From Candidatus Latescibacterota bacterium (GTDB lineage: Bacteria > Latescibacterota > UBA2968), in contig OZ242311.1 of assembly GCA_965207885.1 (NCBI GenBank), positions 2,336,001 through 2,400,000 on the forward strand: DNA of 64,000 bases, in the 5' to 3' direction. The notes beneath the pieces were generated by a model that worked only from the letters and a program-made list of their open reading frames with translations, was not told where the DNA came from and did not search any database. This document shows positions 29,669-49,090 of the stretch, piece after piece. Both the position numbers and the translations under genes were made by a program. How positions within the stretch are numbered: the first letter of the stretch is position 1; each line of letters starts with the position of its first letter.

Positions 29669-30508
29669 TCACGGAGAATCTGACCGCTGTTTTCGACCCC
29701 CTAACGTGGCGCCACCATCGATGGTCAGTGCTTGTCCGGTGATATTTTTCCCTTTGTCGCTCGCCAAAAAGACGACCATGTGACCCACATCTTCGGGGGT
29801 TTGTTCGGTTCCTAAGGGCACGCTGTTGCGTATCACATCTTCAAAAATTTCTCTTGCGGTAAATCCCTTGTATGCCGGGTTGTTGTTTTTGATTTGAGAT
29901 GCGATCATTTCCCAGGCGCGCGTCCATAGGTAGCCGGGGCATATTGCGTTGACTCTAATCCCACGCCCTGCAAGTTGGCTGGCTAAAGTTCTGGTCAAAT
30001 GAATGACTCCGGCTTTGGCCGCACCGTAAGCGGGCATGGAAACGCTGGGCATTAGCGCGGCGATAGATGCGATGTTGATGATGCTGGATCCGCGGCCGAG
30101 ATGTGGAATGGCTGCTCTGGCGGAGACAAAGGCGGTCCGGAGATTGGTGTGTAGATGCGCGTCCCAATCGTCAACGGATAATTCCGTCAGTGGGATTTCC
30201 AGCGATGCTCTGGCCGCGTTTGTATCCGGTCCTCCAATGCCCGCGTTGTTGACGAGGATGTCGAGTGAGCCGAGTTCTGTAATAATTCGATCTGTTGCCG
30301 CGTGCATGGCGGTTTCATCGGATGCATCGGCTGATAGACCTATTGCAGGCGTTTTGAGCGTTTTTGCGGTTTTTTTCGCACCATCGCCATCCAGATCAGT
30401 AATGGCGATTTTAGCACCCGCATCCGATAGGTGTTGTGCGATGGCTGCTCCAATGCCCCGCGCAGCACCTGTTATGAGTGCAACTCGATTTTGTAATTCC
30501 AGACTCAC
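29669..30508 (-). CDS. Short-chain dehydrogenase/reductase
   Basis: TGAARGIG, NNAG and YGAAK; GTG start at 30508 overlaps the upstream stop. Confidence 0.92.
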   Translation of the reverse strand: MSLELQNRVALITGAARGIGAAIAQHLSDAGAKIAITDLDGDGAKKTAKTLKTPAIGLSADASDETAMHAATDRIITELGSLDILVNNAGIGGPDTNAARASLEIPLTELSVDDWDAHLHTNLRTAFVSARAAIPHLGRGSSIINIASIAALMPSVSMPAYGAAKAGVIHLTRTLASQLAGRGIRVNAICPGYLWTRAWEMIASQIKNNNPAYKGFTAREIFEDVIRNSVPLGTEQTPEDVGHMVVFLASDKGKNITGQALTIDGGATLGGRKQRSDSP

Positions 30509-31915
30509 GGTTGTTCCTTTTCTAATTCCAATCCGAGTGTTTTTCCTTTTTGCACGGCGGGAATGCCCGCGCTCATCCATACAGGTGCGGGGGCGTCTTT
30601 GAGATAGTGGTCAAAGAATTGTTGCAGACGGATGCTCCAGTCTTTGCGGTTGTGGTGTTTGCGAATGCCGTGGGCTTCTCCGTTGTAATTGACGAGCCAT
30701 GCGGGTTTGCCCAGGCGGCGCAGGGCGACAAAGAGTTCAATGCCCTGATACCAGGGTACTGCGCCGTCGTCGTCGTTGTGCAAGATGAGCAATGGCGTTT
30801 GAATTTTGTCTGCCCAGAAGATGGGGGAGTTTTCGATAAATCGCGTGGGTGCTTCCCAGAGCGAACCGCCGATGCGACTCTGGCTTTTTTCGTATTGCAT
30901 CATGCGACTCAGTCCCGAAGCCCAGCGAATGCCGCCGTATGCACTGATCATATTTGAGACGGGTGCGCCGGCTTCGGCTGCCCGAAATATATTGGTTCGG
31001 GTGATCATATAGGCGATTTGATAGCCGCCCCAACTGTGGCCCTGTACGCCAATTCGGTCGGGAGCGACAAATCCCCGATTTATGAGGTGCGTCACGCCAG
31101 AGACAACGGCGTTGACGGCACTTTCTCCGGGGAAGCCGACTTTGTAGGGGATGTCCGGAATAAAGATCAGATATCCGCGGCTGACGTAAAATGGGAAATT
31201 TATGGAGGCGCCAGAGGCTCTTGGCGATCGGTGGGCGTGTAGTTGATGGGACATTTTTTCATAGAAATAGACCAGCATGGGATATTTCTGAGCGGGGTCG
31301 AAATTTTCGGGTTTGTAGAGAATGCCCTGCAGGGGTTTGCCGTCGAGTGATACCCATTCGACGAGTTCGGCAGTGCCCCACAGGTAGTCTTTTTGTTGGG
31401 GATTGACTTCGCTTATTTTTCGCGCATTATGAAAATCGAGATCAGCGGTCCAGAGGTCGGGATATTCTTCAAAAGAGGATTGTCTGAAGAGGAGTACGTC
31501 GGTGTCTTTGGCTTTTTGGAGGTTGGAAAACCGTTTGTTGCGCGCGATGAGTTCAGCGGGTTTGTCCGTGCTTTCGATGCGATCCCGATAGTAGCCCATG
31601 GCTTTGGTTTTGAGATTGAAACCCGATAAGAGCAAATCGGCTTTGGGATCGCGTGCCCGTTCTTCGGGGTCGAGGCGTACATATCGAAAGCGCGTTTCGG
31701 TCTCGCGTCCAATCCCTTCAGTGATATTGACGGGTGCTTTGCGCCCGTTGGGATCGGTGAGCCAGATGTCGTAGCGGTCGTAAATGAGAAATTCTTTGTC
31801 GCCTTTTGTCCACCCGGCATTGCCATGTGCGCTGGGTGGATACGGCCAGTCGTGCAATTCGTTGTGAATGGGATGGGGGATATTTTTGCTGACTCTGACG
31901 CGGATCATATTTTTG
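30505..31915 (-). pseudogene. S9 prolyl oligopeptidase family, C-terminal fragment (IS-interrupted)
   Basis: GHSWGG nucleophile, DDGAV, EAHG; in frame with the 34682-36191 fragment after removing the IS and one TSD. Confidence 0.92.
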
Positions 31916-31950
31916 GGTAGTGTCTCAGTTTGAAAATTTGCGGTTTTCTG

Positions 31951-31980
31951 TTGACAGGGGTACGGTGCGTACTTTATTAT
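31951..31980 (+). promoter_or_regulatory. Putative sigma70 promoter for the 32050 ORF
   Basis: TTGACA-N18-TATTAT just inside the left TIR. Confidence 0.5.
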
Positions 31981-32049
31981 TCAACTTAACCCGCAGATTT
32001 CGTTCGTTCACAAGAGAAATACATTCAGGATTCAGGAGGGCAACCGACT

Positions 32050-32265
32050 ATGCCAAAGGGACCAAACGGAGAAAAGCGCCCTGGCGATGTCGTATCTTGT
32101 GCTGTAACAGTAGCACGTATTGCAACCGGTGAAATAGAAGATACGAAATACAAACAGCCAGGCAAACGAAAAGGAGGGGTCGCAGGTGGGCGTGCCCGTG
32201 CAAAAGCACTCTCGCCAAAGCGACGCAAAGAAATAGCGAAAAAAGCTGCCGCCGCAAGGTGGTAG
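32050..32265 (+). CDS. Small basic IS-associated protein (histone-H1-like, putative nucleic-acid binding)
   Basis: RBS AGGAGG; GG..GGRARAKALS..RRKEIAKKAAAARW; terminator follows. Confidence 0.8.
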   Translation: MPKGPNGEKRPGDVVSCAVTVARIATGEIEDTKYKQPGKRKGGVAGGRARAKALSPKRRKEIAKKAAAARW

Positions 32266-32282
32266 CTATCAGAGCAAGGAAT

Positions 32283-32313
32283 AAGCCGAGGTCTATACGA
32301 TCTCGGCTTTTTT
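32283..32313 (+). terminator. Intrinsic terminator
   Basis: AAGCCGAG..CTCGGCTT followed by a T-run. Confidence 0.8.
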
Positions 32314-32335
32314 GTTTTCAAAAACCACTCTATCC

Positions 32336-32364
32336 TTGACAATGGCTTTTTGCAGTGGTACATT
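32336..32364 (+). promoter_or_regulatory. Putative sigma70 promoter with extended -10
   Basis: TTGACA-N17-TACATT, with TG at 32356-32357. Confidence 0.65.
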
Positions 32365-32379
32365 TCTTATGCTTCAGAT

Positions 32380-32514
32380 TAGTCACACTCAGTAGAGGCC
32401 CCGCTTGGTCGGGTAGCCTGCTGAATAGAATAGCCAAATTGTGGAGCGGATTAGCTACCCGTCCCCGGTGAATAGGTAGGGCCCTCCTCGCATCTCTCTG
32501 CGTGAGTGTGACTA
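32380..32514 (+). ncRNA. Putative structured RNA or 5' leader of unknown class
   Basis: Nested stems TAGTCACACTCA/TGAGTGTGACTA, GTAGAG/CTCTGC, GGCCC/GGGCC and CGGGTAGC/GCTACCCG directly downstream of a promoter. Confidence 0.5.
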
Positions 32515-32557
32515 CTACCCGGCATCCTTGCGCAATCTTTTCCACACACATTCATAC

Positions 32558-32662
32558 ACAAAAAAGAGCCGGAAGACTCTGGCGGAGCCTCCCGGCAAAG
32601 GCAGACACGCGAACCACCCGTTGAAAGTTTATCGCTGCATCCACCTGATTCGTAAATGAGTG
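32558..32662 (-). ncRNA. Putative ~105-nt antisense sRNA
   Basis: Minus-strand TTGACA(32697-32692)-N17-TACTTT(32674-32669); terminator GCCGGGAGGCTC..GAGTCTTCCGGC followed by a T-run. Confidence 0.45.
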
Positions 32663-32744
32663 GATTTCAAAGTAAGTAAAAACCTGCTTTGTGTCAATTC
32701 TGTTACAGGTGGATGTGGCGACTCACCACACAGAGGAGGTTTAA

Positions 32745-33377
32745 ATGTATAGGTTCATTCTTGCTGTTTTGTCGGTACTTGTGTACTCTGCTGGCTCGCC
32801 AATGCTCGCTACTGAGCGGCCTTATTTACGGACTGATAGCGGCCAAGCCCGTCAGTTGCGCTATTCGGAGATCTATGCAACGGCCTGGTACGGAACAGAG
32901 GGCACCATTAACCTTCATATAATAATGTCATGGACTCCTAGCAATTCCATGACCTTCGTGAAATGGTTAGTAGTCAACGATACGGCTCGGGATCTGTATT
33001 CTGTGACCATTGGAGACAGGGAGTACGAGTGTTCTAATGGAAATGTGATAACCGTCAAGGGGAATTGGTGGACTGATCCCTTGGAGGGCAGAAGGGTAGA
33101 TGACACCGTGGTCATTGGAGGCAGGGAGTACGAATTGCCGCGGGGGTGGATGCGGCGTGTTGGTGGGACCAACCCCGACATCATACTCCACAAGAAGTCT
33201 CCGCGCGGCCAGAAGGAGTGTCCGCGCATCACAAGCATCCGCCTGAAGGGAGACCCTAAATCTCTTGTTAAATACCTCATCAACAAAGGTGACAAAGATG
33301 TGCATGGCTGGGGAGAGGGCGGGCGAGTTGAGGTTTACCGGAAGGTATCCCGTCGCTGGAAATTGGAGATTAAATAG
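32745..33377 (+). CDS. Hypothetical exported passenger protein
   Basis: RBS GAGGAGG; signal peptide; internal repeat VTIGDREYE/VVIGGREYE. Confidence 0.7.
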   Translation: MYRFILAVLSVLVYSAGSPMLATERPYLRTDSGQARQLRYSEIYATAWYGTEGTINLHIIMSWTPSNSMTFVKWLVVNDTARDLYSVTIGDREYECSNGNVITVKGNWWTDPLEGRRVDDTVVIGGREYELPRGWMRRVGGTNPDIILHKKSPRGQKECPRITSIRLKGDPKSLVKYLINKGDKDVHGWGEGGRVEVYRKVSRRWKLEIK

Positions 33378-33395
33378 GCCACATAGCTTTAGTCG

Positions 33396-33581
33396 CTATC
33401 GCGGGATCTGATAATCCTCAATGACCGTGATTTCCTCCAAGGTGACGCCTGGTGCTGGTCTGATGGTTTTTACCAATATCTGACGCTTCTTCTGCTGTTC
33501 GGCCCGATTCTGCCTTTCAGGGCAGATTCTGGTGCATAGCACATAATAGCCAAGATACGGGCATTGCTGACACTTTACCAT
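33396..33581 (-). CDS. Small Cys-rich passenger protein (CxxC...CxxxC)
   Basis: RBS AGAGGAG; 61 aa; candidate promoter at 33769-33741. Confidence 0.5.
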   Translation of the reverse strand: MVKCQQCPYLGYYVLCTRICPERQNRAEQQKKRQILVKTIRPAPGVTLEEITVIEDYQIPR

Positions 33582-33607
33582 GACAGAGGTCTCCTCTAAC
33601 TAAAGAC

Positions 33608-33692
33608 TTGACCTCAGTACACAAATTTAGTATAATCTAAGTGTCTGGTGCCAAGGCATTCTTTTGGGGCGTGCTCATAACACGCCCTTTTC
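33608..33692 (+). ncRNA. Promoter plus ~50-nt putative sRNA antisense to the 33581 ORF leader
   Basis: TTGACC-N17-TATAAT (33608-33636); hairpin GGGCGTG/CACGCCC plus TTTT (33667-33691). Confidence 0.45.
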
Positions 33693-33797
33693 CTTGCCCA
33701 CCTCATTTTCGGCAGGCTCGTTGCGCTCTGCAACTATTCAATATTAACCGTTTTTCCCCACCCTGTCAACCATTCCCACTTAGTTTGACATAAATGC

Positions 33798-33826
33798 TTG
33801 ACAAACAGCACCTTAATCGCTAAATT
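33798..33826 (+). promoter_or_regulatory. Transposase promoter, probably leaderless mRNA
   Basis: TTGACA-N17-TAAATT with only 6 nt before ATG 33833. Confidence 0.6.
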
Positions 33827-33832
33827 TAAGGT

Positions 33833-34672
33833 ATGAATAAGTTAAGCAAAAACAAGCGGATACAGATACTTGCGATGTTGTGTGAGGGCATGTCGATGCG
33901 GTCGGTAAGCCGTGTTGTCGGGTGTTCTATCAACTCCGTATTGAAGTTGTTGGTAGATGCAGGACAGGTGTGTGCGTTTTACCATGATGAGCATGTGCGC
34001 GGTATAGAAGCAGCCCATATCCAGTGTGATGAGATATGGGCTTTTTGTTATTGTAAGCAGAAAACGGTAGAAAACGGGAATGTGGATCAATACGGTGCGG
34101 GTGATGTGTGGACGTGGACGGCATTAGAGCGAGACACAAAGTTGATCATTGCCTATGAGGTCGGAGATCGGTCTGCTGTGACCGCAATGGAGTTTATATC
34201 GAATCTCCGTGCGAGATTGGTGACCCGGGTACAATTGACGACGGATGGCCTGAGGGCGTATCTCGAAGCGGTCGAGGGCGCGTTTGGTGATGATATAGAC
34301 TTTGCCCAATTGGTGAAGATTTACGATACTGAGACGAACCAGTTGAAACGTGTGGTGATTGGAAACCCTGTTGAGAGCGATATTTCAACATCCCACGTTG
34401 AGCGTCAGAATCTCAATATGCGAATGGGGATGCGCCGGTTTACGCGACTGACGAATGCGTTTTCAAAGAAGTTGGAAAACCACATTCACATGCTGAGTCT
34501 CTACTTTCTGTATTACAATTTCGTGCGGATGCATTTGACGTTGGAGACAACGCCAGCAGTCGCGGCAGGGTTGGCAGACGAAGCCTACACAATGGGCTGG
34601 ATCGTTGACCTGGTGGATGCTCACGCACCCAAACCCAATCGACCAAAAACGTACCGCAAAATTTCAAACTGA
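33833..34672 (+). CDS. IS1-family DDE transposase (single ORF)
   Basis: N-terminal HTH (EGMSMRSVSRVVGCSINSV), DEIW, TTDG, VERQN..RFTRLT.AFSKK; stop lies within the right TIR. Confidence 0.92.
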   Translation: MNKLSKNKRIQILAMLCEGMSMRSVSRVVGCSINSVLKLLVDAGQVCAFYHDEHVRGIEAAHIQCDEIWAFCYCKQKTVENGNVDQYGAGDVWTWTALERDTKLIIAYEVGDRSAVTAMEFISNLRARLVTRVQLTTDGLRAYLEAVEGAFGDDIDFAQLVKIYDTETNQLKRVVIGNPVESDISTSHVERQNLNMRMGMRRFTRLTNAFSKKLENHIHMLSLYFLYYNFVRMHLTLETTPAVAAGLADEAYTMGWIVDLVDAHAPKPNRPKTYRKISN

Positions 34673-34681
34673 GACACTACC

Positions 34682-36191
34682 TATTTTTGACATGCTGAAC
34701 ATACCAGTTTTTGTGGATGCGATCCCACCAGTAGATGTATTTGGACTCGGGTGAAAGGGTGGGACGCGTCTGCATTTTGGTGAGTACGCGCATTGCTTCA
34801 CCGGTTTTTATGTCGATCAAATAGCTGTCGTAATAAGCCGGCGAATCCCACGAAATGAGTTGTCGATAGGGGAGAATCGAATAGCCTATCGCGACATCGG
34901 CATTGCCCTCGCTTCCCAGACGAATATTGGGAATGGTTTCTGTGGCGAGTTGAACGATTTTGCCATTGTTGAGGTGAAAGACGGCGCGATATGTGCGTTC
35001 GCGTTCCTCTTTGGCATCTTTGAGTTGCATGGGTTGGAGATAGGGGTCTTTCCAGTTCCAGATATCGACTGCGACTTTTTCGTCGTCGGGCGTGTCGTCC
35101 TCTGCTTCCACTTCTGGTCTGGAGGCGGTGCCAAAAAAGAGGCGCTTGCCATTTTTGGAAAAGGAGAGGTTGGCGTGTTCGCTGACCCACCAGTTTGGGG
35201 GTATGCCCTTAGTTCCAGATCGGGCGATTTCTTTTGCCTTATTGCGCGAGCCAACGGGCCAGTAATAGAGGGCGTATTCCTGTTGCTCTGCGTTAAAGCT
35301 GTCGCGGTTGGCAATAAATGCGAGATGGAGACTGGATTCGTCGGTGGTGATTTTTTTGTAATCGCCCGCGCCCGTGAGTATGGCTGTGGTGTCGCCCGTG
35401 CTGGTGCGAATGGCGTAGATGCCATCGGCTGTGCTGTCTTTGTTGGCGGCGACAAAAATGAGATACGAACCGCTTTCTGTGAAGGCGTAGGAGATTACGT
35501 GGTTATATCGCGTTTCAGCACTGGTCTGGAGGTTGCGGAGAACGAGTGTGGTGCCTTCGGCTTTTTTGCGTTTTTTCTTTTTGGGATCTTTCGGTTCTTC
35601 TTTTTTGGCTTCTTCAGGTCCTGGCTTTTGCTCGGGCTGTTTTTCGGGTTTGGATGTTTGCTCTTCCTTTTTTTCAGGTTCGGGTGCTTTTTTCTTTTTT
35701 TTCACAGTACTGTCTTTTTTGGCGATTTCTTTTTCCAGCAAATAAGCGACCCATCCTCCGTTTTCTTTGGGTAGTTTGAAGGATTTGACGCGGGTGGCTT
35801 TAAAGATATCTCCCGTGGCGAGGGTGATGATGCCAAGTGAGTCTTTGGGCGATTCTTCGGGTTTTTTCTTGTCGCGTTTTGCCTGTTGTACCGAGTCTTT
35901 GAAGGCTTTGATGAGGGTGACGATATAACGCGAATCTCTGGTGAATCGAATGGCTTCTCCGCGCGGTATCGCATAGGAGCGGTCACCTGTGAGGCTTGCG
36001 ATGCGGAGTTCGGTGTCTTTTTCGTCCGGGCCGATAGAGAGAAAAGCCCATTGTCCGTTGTCGGAAATATTGCTGGCATGCGTGCGATTCCATATGTCGT
36101 ACACATCGTGATCCAGCGGCTTTTTCTGCTGGGCAAAGACGAGTGGAGATATACTCAAGAGTACAGATAGCAGGTATGTAGATAGACGCAT
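34682..36191 (-). pseudogene. S9 prolyl oligopeptidase family, N-terminal fragment (IS-interrupted)
   Basis: Signal peptide, QKKPLDHDVYDIW, beta-propeller-like region, Lys/Glu/Pro linker; truncated at the IS. Confidence 0.9.
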
Positions 36192-36305: not shown

Positions 36306-36334
36306 TTGCAAAAATGTCGCTTTTAAGCTACATT
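36306..36334 (+). promoter_or_regulatory. TA promoter with overlapping operator palindrome
   Basis: TTGCAA-N17-TACATT; imperfect palindrome ATGTCGCTTTTAAGCTACAT; ATG 6 nt downstream. Confidence 0.6.
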
Positions 36335-36340
36335 CAGTAT

Positions 36341-36675
36341 ATGCAGGAAGCAATCCCCCGACAGATTGAGGAATATATCACTGCTGAAGGCCGAGTCCCC
36401 TTCAGCCAATGGCTCAAGAGTCTGAATGATCGAAAGGCTCACGAATTAGAGTTCGCTTGGACCGCCTCAGCATGGGTAACCTCGGCGATTGTCGCTCCCT
36501 GGGCGGTAGCCTCTATGAACTTCGACTCGACTATGGACCTGGTTACCGCGTCTATTTTGGTGAAGTCCGAGAACGGGTTATTCTACTTTTGGCTGGCGGT
36601 ACTAAAAAATCTCAACAAAGAGATATCGCTCAGGCCAGAAACTTTTGGGCTGACTTCAGGAGGCGAGAGTTATGA
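36341..36675 (+). pseudogene. RelE/HigB-type addiction-module toxin, frameshifted
   Basis: MQEAIP..GRVPFSQWLKSLNDRKA in one frame continues as RIRVRLDRLSMGNLGD..YELRLDYGPGYRVYF..GGTKKSQQRDI in another; shift near 36439. Confidence 0.85.
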
Positions 36676-36977
36676 GCAAGACATCAAGACCATATAAGCC
36701 GGAACTGCTTAAAGCACTTCAAGACCCTATAGAAGCCGCAGAATATTTGAACGCGGCTCTGGAAGAAGATATGAATGAGTTATTTCTGTTAGCACTCCGA
36801 AATGTTGCAGAAGCTTATGGTATGACTCGGCTCGCTGAGGATGCACAGTTGAACCGTGAATCTATGTATCGCATGTTATCAGAGAAGGGCAATCCGCAGT
36901 TTACCAGCCTGATTTCCATCCTGAGGCAACTTGGCTTGAAACTCTCTGTTCAAGCAAAGGAATCAGTCCCTGTGTAG
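36672..36977 (+). CDS. Addiction-module antidote (HTH antitoxin, HigA-like)
   Basis: AAEYLNAALE, ALRNVAEAYGM..LA...LNRESMYRMLSEKGNP; ATGA overlap with the toxin stop. Confidence 0.9.
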   Translation: MSKTSRPYKPELLKALQDPIEAAEYLNAALEEDMNELFLLALRNVAEAYGMTRLAEDAQLNRESMYRMLSEKGNPQFTSLISILRQLGLKLSVQAKESVPV

Positions 36978-47371: not shown

Positions 47372-49090
47372 TTATGGGTCCGTCTGTTCAGTCACAGTCC
47401 AAACCTGGTTGACGGGTATATTTTTCAGTACCTGTACCGTTCCGCTGGGCCACCGAATCATCAGGGTATCCACTGTTGAACGACTGCCTATCCCGAAGTG
47501 AACCCGGAGATCGTTCTGAGAGAGATAGCTTGATCCGCTCCGCACCTCCTTCACCTGCCTCAACCTCCCGGAGACCACCCTTACTTTGGCGCCGATTCCA
47601 TCCCGGTTGCTCACCGTCCCCACAGTTCGGACTGTCAGATAGTTGTTCTGATTTCCCCCGTCGTTGCGCAGCAGGTCCGCCCGCTCGTTGGAGTTGAGGA
47701 CAAACAGATCGACATCCCCGTCGTTGTCATAATCCCCAAACGCCGTTCCACGACTGGCTTTCACAAGGCGCATCCCATCTCCGGACTTCAGGGAAGTGTC
47801 GGCGAACGTCCCATCCCCGTTATTGTGAAAAAGGAGATTGCGCTGTGGATAAGAGGTTGATCCGTCCAGCTTTTCGATGTTGTCCTGCACGTGACCGTTG
47901 GCCGCGAAAAGGTCGCTGTACCCGTCGTTGTTATAGTCGAAAAAACCGACCCCCCATCCGAGGTAAGGTCGGGTGACTCTGCCCGTACCGGAGGCAAACG
48001 ACACATCGGTGAATGTCCCATCCCCGTTGTTGCGGTAGAGGGTATAAGTCTCATGCTGGAAATTGGTCACAATCAGATCCATCCACCCGTCGTTGTCGTA
48101 ATCGCCAGCATCCACGCCCATGCCTCCCTCCTCCTGGCCGTTCTCGTTGTAACCGACCCCGGAGATCAATCCCACATCGGTGAATGTCCCGTCTCCATTG
48201 TTCCGATAGAGGAAATTCCCAACCATATCGTTAGCCACATACAGATCGGGATCTCCATCGTCGTCGTAGTCTGTGACGACTACGCCCAGGCTTTTCCCTT
48301 CGGTATTGGCTACACCGGCTGCATCGGCTACATCGGTGAATGTCCCATCCCCGTTGTTTCGATAGAGTCGGTCGGGCGCACCATTGAAGTTGTGCGGATG
48401 GGGATATGTCTTCAGATCCGAGGCACCGGTGCCCTGATAATCGACGATATAGGGGATCAGATCAATTCGCGGATCGTCCAGAGAGTAATCGAGGTAGTTG
48501 GCCACGTAGAGGTCCAGATTCCCGTCGTTATCGTAGTCCAGAAACGAGCACCCCGATCCCCAGTGGCTGTCGCCCACGGCGGCGGCGTCCGTCACGTCGG
48601 TGAACGTCCCATCCCCGTTGTTTCGATAGAGGATGTTGGAACCGTAGTTGGTGACATAGAGGTCCAGGTCCCCGTCGTTGTCATAGTCGCCGGTAGCACA
48701 TCCCGTTCCGTATCCCGTGTCGCCCACGGCGGCGGCGTCCGTCACATCGGTGAATGTTCCATCTCCATTGTTCCGATAAAGCCTGTTCGTCGGCGTCTCA
48801 TTTCCTACAAACTCCGGAAGTGGGGCACCATTGACAGCATACAGGTCCAGGTCGCCATCGCCATCGCAGTCAAAAAAAGCGCAGCCTGCCCCCATCGTCT
48901 CTACAAAGTACTTTTGCCCACTCCCTCCGTGGACGTGGTAGAATTCGACCCCCGCCTGAACCGTGATATCTACAAATAGAACGCCCTGTGCATCGCCTGG
49001 ATCCCGTTTTGGACCACAGGTCAGGCCAAATAACGCGACGAGAACCATGAAACGGGTTGTCCACACTCGCGCAGAGTGAAACCAGAACAT
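47372..49090 (-). CDS. CRTAC1-family protein (FG-GAP/VCBS repeats + ASPIC/UnbV)
   Basis: Repeated DYDNDGDLDLYV and LYRNNGDGTFTDV; C-terminal SNRDGIGA..HFGIG..IRWPSG. Confidence 0.92.
   Translation of the reverse strand: MFWFHSARVWTTRFMVLVALFGLTCGPKRDPGDAQGVLFVDITVQAGVEFYHVHGGSGQKYFVETMGAGCAFFDCDGDGDLDLYAVNGAPLPEFVGNETPTNRLYRNNGDGTFTDVTDAAAVGDTGYGTGCATGDYDNDGDLDLYVTNYGSNILYRNNGDGTFTDVTDAAAVGDSHWGSGCSFLDYDNDGNLDLYVANYLDYSLDDPRIDLIPYIVDYQGTGASDLKTYPHPHNFNGAPDRLYRNNGDGTFTDVADAAGVANTEGKSLGVVVTDYDDDGDPDLYVANDMVGNFLYRNNGDGTFTDVGLISGVGYNENGQEEGGMGVDAGDYDNDGWMDLIVTNFQHETYTLYRNNGDGTFTDVSFASGTGRVTRPYLGWGVGFFDYNNDGYSDLFAANGHVQDNIEKLDGSTSYPQRNLLFHNNGDGTFADTSLKSGDGMRLVKASRGTAFGDYDNDGDVDLFVLNSNERADLLRNDGGNQNNYLTVRTVGTVSNRDGIGAKVRVVSGRLRQVKEVRSGSSYLSQNDLRVHFGIGSRSTVDTLMIRWPSGTVQVLKNIPVNQVWTVTEQTDP

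Follow-up and report, generated by a model that had tools for sequence, protein, structure and literature searches.

An Insertion Sequence With a Promoter-Driven RNA

We analyzed 64,000 nucleotides (nt) of contig OZ242311.1 (positions 2,336,001 to 2,400,000 of the forward strand) from the assembly GCA_965207885.1 of a Candidatus Latescibacterota bacterium; this whole stretch is called the window below, and coordinates count from its first letter. An insertion sequence (IS) of the IS1 family in the window carries a structured RNA, which is the subject of this work. Comparison with related sequences indicates that the RNA is real, conserved, folded, about 150 nt long and driven by its own promoter. 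With modest confidence we read it as a sigma-70-driven member of a mobile family of leader RNAs, related to the small RNA (sRNA) sRNA-Xcc1, whose two mutually exclusive states would set the translation of the gene that follows.

The IS spans 2766 bp (31916–34681). Its terminal inverted repeats of 29 nt (left, 31916–31944 on the plus strand; right, 34653–34681 on the minus strand) are 97% complementary, and the same eight bases, TATTTTTG, lie as a target-site duplication at both ends (31908–31915 and 34682–34689). The features between the repeats are on the plus strand unless stated otherwise. From left to right they are an open reading frame (ORF) for a basic protein of 71 amino acids (aa), taken from the ORF list (32050–32265), a terminator-like hairpin with a T-run that ends this gene directly 5′ of the RNA promoter (32283–32309), the RNA itself, a strong terminator-like hairpin of 12 pairs with a T-run on the minus strand (32568–32596), a 210-aa ORF with a hydrophobic N-terminus (32745–33377) that is preceded by GAGGAGG at 32733–32739, and a 279-aa transposase of the IS1 family (33833–34672). 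The transposase matched Pfam PF03400 with 37.2 bits and NCBIfam transpos_IS1 with 74.6 bits, under the latter's cut-off of 100. The genome holds the IS in four identical copies and no further copy of the transposase. Promoter, RNA and the gene of the 210-aa, exported-looking protein are together cargo of the element.

Promoter and Fold of the Window Copy

The RNA is preceded by a sigma-70-type promoter (32336–32364) consisting of TTGACA (32336–32341), a 17-nt spacer and TACATT (32359–32364). TGG stands directly before TACATT and makes it an extended −10 box. The promoter had been proposed in an earlier note on this DNA, and both direct reading and a consensus scan (10 of 12 matches, with TG) confirmed it. 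Downstream of it, strand a (32380–32391) and strand a′ (32503–32514) form the outer stem P1 of 12 bp; the arms are 100% complementary and 111 nt apart, and the stem, described in the earlier note as perfect, was indeed so and recurred among relatives. Strand a′ differs from locus to locus like a barcode. Within P1 follow segment b (GTCGGGTAG, 32408–32416), the 5′ strand of a pseudoknot or closing helix that corresponds to the closing stem of sRNA-Xcc1, and the conserved core (32417–32480). The core, which includes invariant alignment columns, is composed of P3 (CCTGC 32417–32421 with GTAGG 32476–32480), an internal loop (TGAATAGAATA 32422–32432 opposite GAATAG 32470–32475), and P4 (GCC 32433–32435 with GGT 32467–32469), which holds a variable insert. 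Segment b′ (CTACCCGGC, 32515–32523) abuts a′ and pairs with b; a′ and b′ are thus contiguous, while their partners a and b lie separately.

Folding a stretch of 156 nt gave −61.8 kcal/mol compared to −49.0 ± 4.0 kcal/mol for 200 shuffled sequences (z = −3.17), and none of the 200 shuffles was as good; the earlier note had suggested this folding check. The opposite strand of the same stretch folded nearly as well (z = −3.11), and folding energy alone is therefore no guide to the strand.

Several inner helices that had been drawn for the window copy exist in its letters and went no further. GTAGAG 32392–32397 with CTCTGC 32496–32501 (one G-U), GGCCC 32397–32401 with GGGCC 32479–32483, the 8-bp stem of CGGGTAGC 32410–32417 with GCTACCCG 32454–32461, and CCGCTT 32401–32406 with the loop GAGCGG 32444–32449 were all present, but none of them (GTAGAG/CTCTGC as aligned) was paired better than shuffled sequences across 103 relatives. 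For the 8-bp stem an exact 7-nt complement was found in just 10 of 100 rows. CTACCCG (32515–32521), suggested earlier as a competing partner for CGGGTAG, turned out to be part of the conserved helix b:b′.

A Widespread and Mobile Family

BLAST searches detected copies of the RNA in 27 of the 41 genomes searched, the genome of the window included, which contains two further copies with about 76% identity in unrelated contexts. Divergent copies with 72–79% identity were located outside any IS. Aligning 30 sequences showed that the upstream −10 box is conserved, that the outer stem covaries and that long blocks are invariant; a covariance model of 151 positions (R1) was built from this alignment. 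The window copy scored 125.6 bits with R1 and kept all invariant blocks. In its own genome R1 found nine copies, four of them in the identical IS copies and five outside. As copies outside the IS stand in unrelated contexts, the RNA is no feature of the IS itself.

Searching with R1, we found the RNA in 36 of the 53 genomes from the order. In a sample of the phylum, 62 of 151 genomes contained copies, as did 11 of 46 genera, with up to 14 copies per genome. A degenerate 23-nt motif of the core was scanned against a collection of species-representative genomes and matched at least 119 places; R1 confirmed 78 of the 80 pattern-selected loci that were fetched, from many phyla, and four of five matches on viral contigs. 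Among the matches listed were Alpha- and Gammaproteobacteria (including isolates of Acetobacter, Komagataeibacter, and Ruegeria), Gemmatimonadota, Binatia, Acidobacteriota, Nitrospirales, Rhodothermales, Opitutales, Limisphaerales, and Latescibacterota. To judge from these matches, the RNA is a member of a very widespread, horizontally mobile family.

Covariation in P1, the Core, and b:b′

Pairs were counted in an alignment of 103 sequences from many phyla (A4), using 500 shuffles and slid partners as controls. In P1 all 11 of 11 pairs changed on both sides and 95.1% of the cells were paired; both-sided changes were also seen in five of five pairs of P3 (CCUGC/GUAGG in the window) and in three of four pairs of P4. 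No shuffle out of 500 reached the observed value in any measure, and slid partners were paired in 30–44%. Helix b:b′ joins an invariant GUCGGGU to an invariant tail [G/A]CCCG[G/A]C (such as ACCCGGC) and was paired in 99.9% of the cells; nearly all of its changes preserve the pair, with U-G to U-A in 16 and 15 sequences. The covariation check among homologues, put forward in the earlier note, hence speaks for the outer stem and for b:b′. The note's broader idea, a promoter-driven structured RNA that can pair in alternative ways or as a pseudoknot, is supported as well. Because b:b′ crosses P1, the two helices either form a pseudoknot or belong to alternative states.

RNAalifold had proposed a different pairing, of CGGG with an internal CCCG. 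This was rejected in favor of b:b′, as 10 to 21 sequences were unpaired at four of its six pairs, and four and two sequences at the others. The internal loop between P3 and P4 (GAAUA.AA.A / GAAUAG) is conserved, with invariant unpaired bases beside the freely covarying stems. In most copies sigma-70-type promoters lie directly 5′ of P1, at the equivalent place.

A frequent sequence of the 3′ strand of P1 is GGTTGACA (with the partners TGTCAACC), which contains the sigma-70 −35 consensus TTGACA; inspection by eye found no −10 box to match it, and the Escherichia coli member described below keeps GTTGACA at this place.

Downstream Genes and a Second Partner of the 3′ Strand

Of 104 loci with sufficient flanking sequence, 71 had a Shine-Dalgarno (SD) motif and a start codon on the same strand no more than 200 nt downstream, compared to 38 of 111 in a control taken from the divergent side. 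The distance from the RNA to the start had a median of 41 nt (interquartile range (IQR) 35–65; 71 loci). Of the 71 products, 42 had a signal-peptide-like or membrane N-terminus (3 of 38 in the control) and 18 a lipobox. Of 62 non-redundant downstream ORFs, 47 were compared with Pfam, which identified LRR, WD40, ankyrin, dockerin-Ig, and NHL repeat proteins, as well as CAAX protease, MunI, T5orf172, DUF1232, GT2/GT25, and CsgG-like proteins; 29 of the 47 had no Pfam family, and no metabolic theme emerged among them.

In 79 of 119 sequences, compared to a fraction of 0.44 of shuffled ones, b′ also serves as the 5′ arm of a hairpin formed locally on the 3′ side, its partner there being b″. In many relatives the a sequence of the locus recurs after this hairpin, and this repeat is here called a″. 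Strand a′ paired more strongly with its own downstream region (−12.3 kcal/mol) than with those of other loci (−10.5 kcal/mol; Wilcoxon, p = 1e-7), and in 36 of 118 loci the gain was more than 3 kcal. In loci with a called start, the gap between a″ and the SD motif had a median of −1 nt, that is, 1 nt into the SD-like motif, and 10 of 21 gaps lay between −10 and +3. In a strict scan, terminator-like sites within 150 nt 3′ of the RNA were rare (2 of 49 and 2 of 83), and a switch between terminator and antiterminator is therefore not general in this family.

A Distant, Extended Relative of sRNA-Xcc1

The class of the RNA had been called unrecognized in the earlier note, and this did not hold. Although the Rfam scan of 31000–36000 gave nothing on the RNA, a narrower search and the relatives yielded sub-threshold matches to sRNA-Xcc1 (RF02221; gathering cut-off 53 bits) that sit exactly on it. 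In the window cmscan aligned RF02221 end to end at 32408–32531 with 21.6 bits (E = 0.15), below the cut-off; 20 loci of relatives gave 13 further matches, again sub-threshold and end to end, the best being L152 with 36.4 bits (E = 3e-4). The highest RF02221 score in the genome of the window was 28.3 bits, and no copy there passes the cut-off.

The likeness extends over the closing helix and the first hairpin. sRNA-Xcc1 closes with GgCcGGggG/CccCCgGcC, to which b:b′ corresponds, with its roughly 9 bp formed by GTCGGGTAG (32408–32416) and CTACCCGGC (32515–32523). Its hairpin 1 has a loop AAUACAAuA / GAAua and a short CCC/GGG stem and is equivalent to P3, the loop and P4, where TGAATAGAATA (32422–32432) and GAATAG (32470–32475) flank P4. 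Both RNAs occur in multiple copies and are borne by mobile elements. The second hairpin of sRNA-Xcc1 aligned poorly, with mismatch marks in cmscan, and the 3′ half of this region forms P1 here. The sizes differ as well: sRNA-Xcc1 measures 87–89 nt and starts at the closing helix, whereas the RNA family studied here has about 150 nt (151 model positions), a long variable insert in P4 and a promoter that places the start 5′ of P1. An extra 5′ strand, a, pairs in P1 with the region before b′, and what is the closing stem in sRNA-Xcc1 would thereby be turned into a pseudoknot. The family also reaches many non-proteobacterial phyla, unlike sRNA-Xcc1. Given the sub-threshold end-to-end alignments together with the additional P1, insert and length, the family is a distant, extended relative of sRNA-Xcc1 that falls outside membership by the Rfam threshold.

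We compared it with a bona fide sRNA-Xcc1 (69.1 bits) in E. coli O157:H7 EDL933 (L248:1501–1589, minus strand). That copy has its own promoter, lies 40 nt 5′ of a prophage antirepressor (Ant) gene, shares GGUCGGGU, AAUACAACA, GGGGAAUA, and CACCCGACC with the family of the window, and has a 3′ hairpin that overlaps its tail.

sRNA-Xcc1 comes from Xanthomonas campestris and is also reported from islands of Xylella and from E. coli prophages. In Xanthomonas, Northern blotting and end mapping show it as a discrete species of about 88 nt (PMC2996969). In the most widespread integron cassette of Xanthomonas it lies upstream of symE and points away from the cassette promoter (bioRxiv 10.1101/2025.06.18.660453); Xylella is described with seven copies, of which five form a tandem array with a spacing of about 385 nt (PMC12189769), APSE phages with a copy upstream of an ORF6N gene (bioRxiv 10.1101/2020.03.17.996009), and enterohemorrhagic E. 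coli O157 with an abundant RNA of low ribosome cover (PMC5331693). The available portions of the literature on sRNA-Xcc1/RF02221, supplements aside, do not describe the extended family. What seems to be new here is the extended variant of the sRNA-Xcc1 kind, sRNA-Xcc1 itself being already catalogued.

Other known RNAs were considered and rejected. For 6S RNA no RF00013 match was found in the genome, which is weak evidence since the model detected just 5 of 14 control genomes. The signal recognition particle RNA lies elsewhere in the genome (74.2 bits). For Y RNA, a Ro/TROVE protein was looked for and no TROVE domain was found.

Resemblance to the c4 and Brt RNAs

In its layout the leader resembles the c4 antisense system in the immI leader of phage P1. 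The P1 record lists, in this order, a1, b1, the C4 RNA, a2, b2, icd, and ant, with a1 and b1 at 48255–48276, C4 at 48343–48419, a2 and b2 at 48423–48459 and the start of icd at 48470; the sites are annotated with "repression of icd ant translation". P1 itself scored 68.8 bits with Rfam C4 (RF01695) and 51 bits with c4-a1b1 (RF03163) of clan CL00128. The c4 systems of P1 and P7 share with the family a promoter, upstream complementary sites, a structured RNA, downstream sites by the ribosome site, and an ORF, and family-wide we found complementary sites on both sides of the RNA, the downstream ones by the ribosome site. The window copy has these downstream sites in weak form or not at all. P1 c4 controls an antirepressor (ant), and the E. 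coli member of sRNA-Xcc1 also precedes an antirepressor gene. The order of sites differs, being a, b, a′b′, b″a″, SD here, and so does the fold, as the upstream sites belong to the conserved fold itself in our family. c4 RNA is processed by RNase P, and the details of its a′/b′ pairing were reportedly worked out by Citron and Schuster in 1990.

A second likeness is by description only. According to Tu et al. (2016, PMC5387305), Bartonella Brt1-9 are highly expressed structured RNAs of 194–203 nt in many copies, each directly upstream of a gene, for which the authors propose action both in cis, riboswitch-like, and in trans. They differ in that their downstream genes are helix-turn-helix (HTH) regulators and in that the family is genus-specific (PMC5387305).

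Proposed Function and Its Alternatives

Most likely the family functions as bistable cis-acting leaders, with translation as the presumed level of control. The RNA would start at its own sigma-70 promoter and form the 5′ leader of the next gene. In one state, the leader would be closed on itself through a:a′ together with b:b′; in the other, available to most relatives, the contiguous a′b′ would pair with the downstream b″a″ repeat just 5′ of the ribosome-binding site. As a′b′ has two alternative partners, a/b and a″/b″, the two states would be mutually exclusive, and the choice between them would set the translation of the downstream gene, usually one for an exported protein. Of the functions proposed in the earlier note, the switchable leader is the best reading at the family level, while nothing points to the ribozyme.

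The window copy itself lacks the b″ hairpin (two of seven b′ bases paired, −2.7 kcal), and a″ is weak, with a match seen by eye at about 32547–32554. The RNA lies 222 nt from its gene at 32745, with the minus-strand terminator in between, so that control of this gene is less clear than in most relatives. These traits of the window copy weigh against the leader reading, and so do several results from the family. No start was called within 200 nt downstream in 33 of 104 loci, a clearly own-specific a″ was seen in just 36 of 118 loci, and the spacing between a″ and the SD motif varies widely (IQR −28 to +17). The alignment A4 was fitted to the model, which favors P1, P3, and P4 in the pair counts. 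The Rfam score of the window is far under the sRNA-Xcc1 cut-off, R1 recognized only the core of the EDL933 member (8 bits, E = 0.15), and no match to the C4 clan was obtained on the window (E up to 10) or on 20 relatives (E up to 5). sRNA-Xcc1 is said, by the title of a 2011 paper of Chen et al., to be a trans-acting sRNA. In the RNA sequencing run X1, 0.04 of the words were found, and the only 43 nt matched were 32734–32776. Runs X2, X3, and X5 behaved like DNA of one sample, with an IS depth of about 4.4 times that of the flanks; with one run of five being RNA and the rest DNA-like, the runs speak neither for nor against transcription or habitat.

Two other kinds of RNA have to be weighed against such a leader. 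A ligand-sensing riboswitch, in which the pseudoknotted core binds a small molecule or ion that stabilizes a:a′ and b:b′, frees b″a″ and changes the expression of the exported-protein gene, strikes us as unlikely. The family does have the corresponding architecture of a conserved aptamer-like part in the 5′ untranslated region and an alternatively pairing expression platform: it sits at the 5′ end of mRNAs, its 3′ strand has an alternative partner, and the invariant unpaired bases of the P3–P4 loop stand next to freely covarying stems. Second-messenger riboswitches also have gene sets rich in exported and surface proteins, and here, too, the genes are mostly of this type and the copies are many, up to 14 per genome. 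However, the genes have no common metabolic or transport theme (a restriction enzyme, a T5orf172 protein and glycosyltransferases are among them) and offer no ligand candidate, the link to mobile elements is strong, and the locus-specific a, a′ and a″ resemble addresses more than they do a generic expression platform. Similarly improbable in our view is a stand-alone, trans-acting sRNA gene with distant mRNA targets, for which the neighboring ORF would be incidental, at least in the IS-borne copy. Here the distance and the terminator in the window, its missing b″, and the loci without a nearby called start fit well, as do the discrete sRNA-Xcc1 of about 88 nt in Xanthomonas and the abundant E. 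coli O157 copy with its low ribosome cover (PMC2996969 and PMC5331693). Nevertheless, same-strand starts were called after the RNA in 71 of 104 loci, with a median distance of 41 nt, compared to 38 of 111 control loci, few terminator-like sites come after it (2 of 49 and 2 of 83), and the variable a′ matches its own downstream region; moreover, a leader that is processed out, as in c4, would also yield a discrete small RNA.

That the sequence acts at the DNA level, as a miniature inverted-repeat transposable element (MITE), an IS terminal repeat, or an attC-like recombination site, is hardly credible. The attC idea comes from the occurrence of sRNA-Xcc1 in integrons, with cassettes in Xanthomonas (bioRxiv 10.1101/2025.06.18.660453), and the element is indeed palindromic, folds equally on both strands, occurs in many copies and is associated with an IS family. 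On the other hand, divergent copies (72–79% identity) lie outside any IS in other contexts, many G-U pairs of the helices would be C-A mismatches on the other strand (G-U in 26 and 27 sequences at two pairs, U-G in 82 and 86), the loops hold invariant bases, and the promoter stands at a fixed distance on one side only. A MITE or IS end was rejected, as five of nine copies in the genome are outside the IS, relatives stand in unrelated contexts, and the 29-bp terminal repeats of the IS differ from the RNA in sequence.

A broader version of the bistable leader can be entertained tentatively, and we doubt it more than we believe it. The family would then consist of mobile, "self-addressed" leaders shared across phyla, in which the core senses a ligand or factor and the private a/a′/a″ set addresses the leader's own gene. 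Each copy would control only its own gene for an exported or host-interaction protein, and IS1-family elements, phages and integron cassettes would spread such promoter–leader–gene modules between phyla.

If the bistable leader reading holds, a single RNA design would govern hundreds of accessory genes in at least 10 bacterial phyla, many of which encode exported proteins, lipoproteins, or eukaryotic-like repeat proteins. It would also join subjects so far treated apart, namely sRNA-Xcc1, the c4-type logic of leaders that pair with their own message, and IS cargo. Rfam covers just the small proteobacterial tip of the family, sRNA-Xcc1; as the leaders fall below its cut-off, genome annotation has a systematic gap here. 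The helices made by a, a′, a″, b, b′, and b″ offer concrete targets for mutation.

The Insertion Sequence, Its Relatives, and Neighboring Genes

The adjacent 71-aa protein had been suggested as a binding partner of the RNA in the earlier note. Its homologues were confined to loci with transposase relatives (6 of 27 such loci, four of the six without an RNA copy), and none was found in any RNA-only locus compared; the protein therefore belongs to the IS and is no RNA partner. Neither the 71-aa nor the 210-aa ORF had a Pfam or NCBIfam match, and the 210-aa ORF had no homologue among the other RNA and transposase loci compared.

Among the relatives of the IS, 6 of 27 loci carry an RNA copy divergent from the transposase, followed by an ORF for a membrane protein or lipoprotein, and in L216 the RNA copy and the following ORF lie inside the terminal repeats. 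With RNA copies in several relatives, the promoter–RNA–gene module rides repeatedly on this IS group, and the cargo in the middle of such elements seems to be exchangeable. In L214 (2444–3643), another relative, the homologue of the 71-aa ORF is followed by ORFs of 126 and 188 aa in place of the RNA-led gene; by eye these are candidates for a RelE/HigB-type toxin with an HTH partner. In L100 (169–329), from a metagenome-assembled genome of Candidatus Binatia, two terminal repeats of the same type lie 161 bp apart like a MITE-like derivative. Another RNA copy is found about 55 bases 3′ of these repeats, and a promoter-like hexamer about 10 bases after the repeat.

Within the IS of the window, no minus-strand gene is evident upstream of the minus-strand terminator at 32568–32596, which may be a relic of the module's original context. 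Between it and the 210-aa ORF lies an inverted repeat of 16 nt (32632–32647 with 32706–32721, plus strand; 88% complementary, 58 nt apart) that stops 12 nt 5′ of the GAGGAGG ribosome site and may form a leader hairpin of its own. Inside the 210-aa ORF there is a direct repeat of 26 nt (33003–33028 and 33108–33133) with a spacing of 105 nt; the corresponding peptides VTIGDREYE and VVIGGREYE suggest an internal repeat domain in the protein.

The IS has split a gene on the minus strand for a peptidase of the S9 (prolyl-oligopeptidase) type into 30505–31908 and 34677–36191. The C-terminal part of the split gene matches Pfam Peptidase_S9, and the TATTTTTG duplication marks the insertion site. Beyond it, a 127-aa ORF on the plus strand (36314–36697) resembles, by eye, the HigB-like killer proteins of addiction modules.

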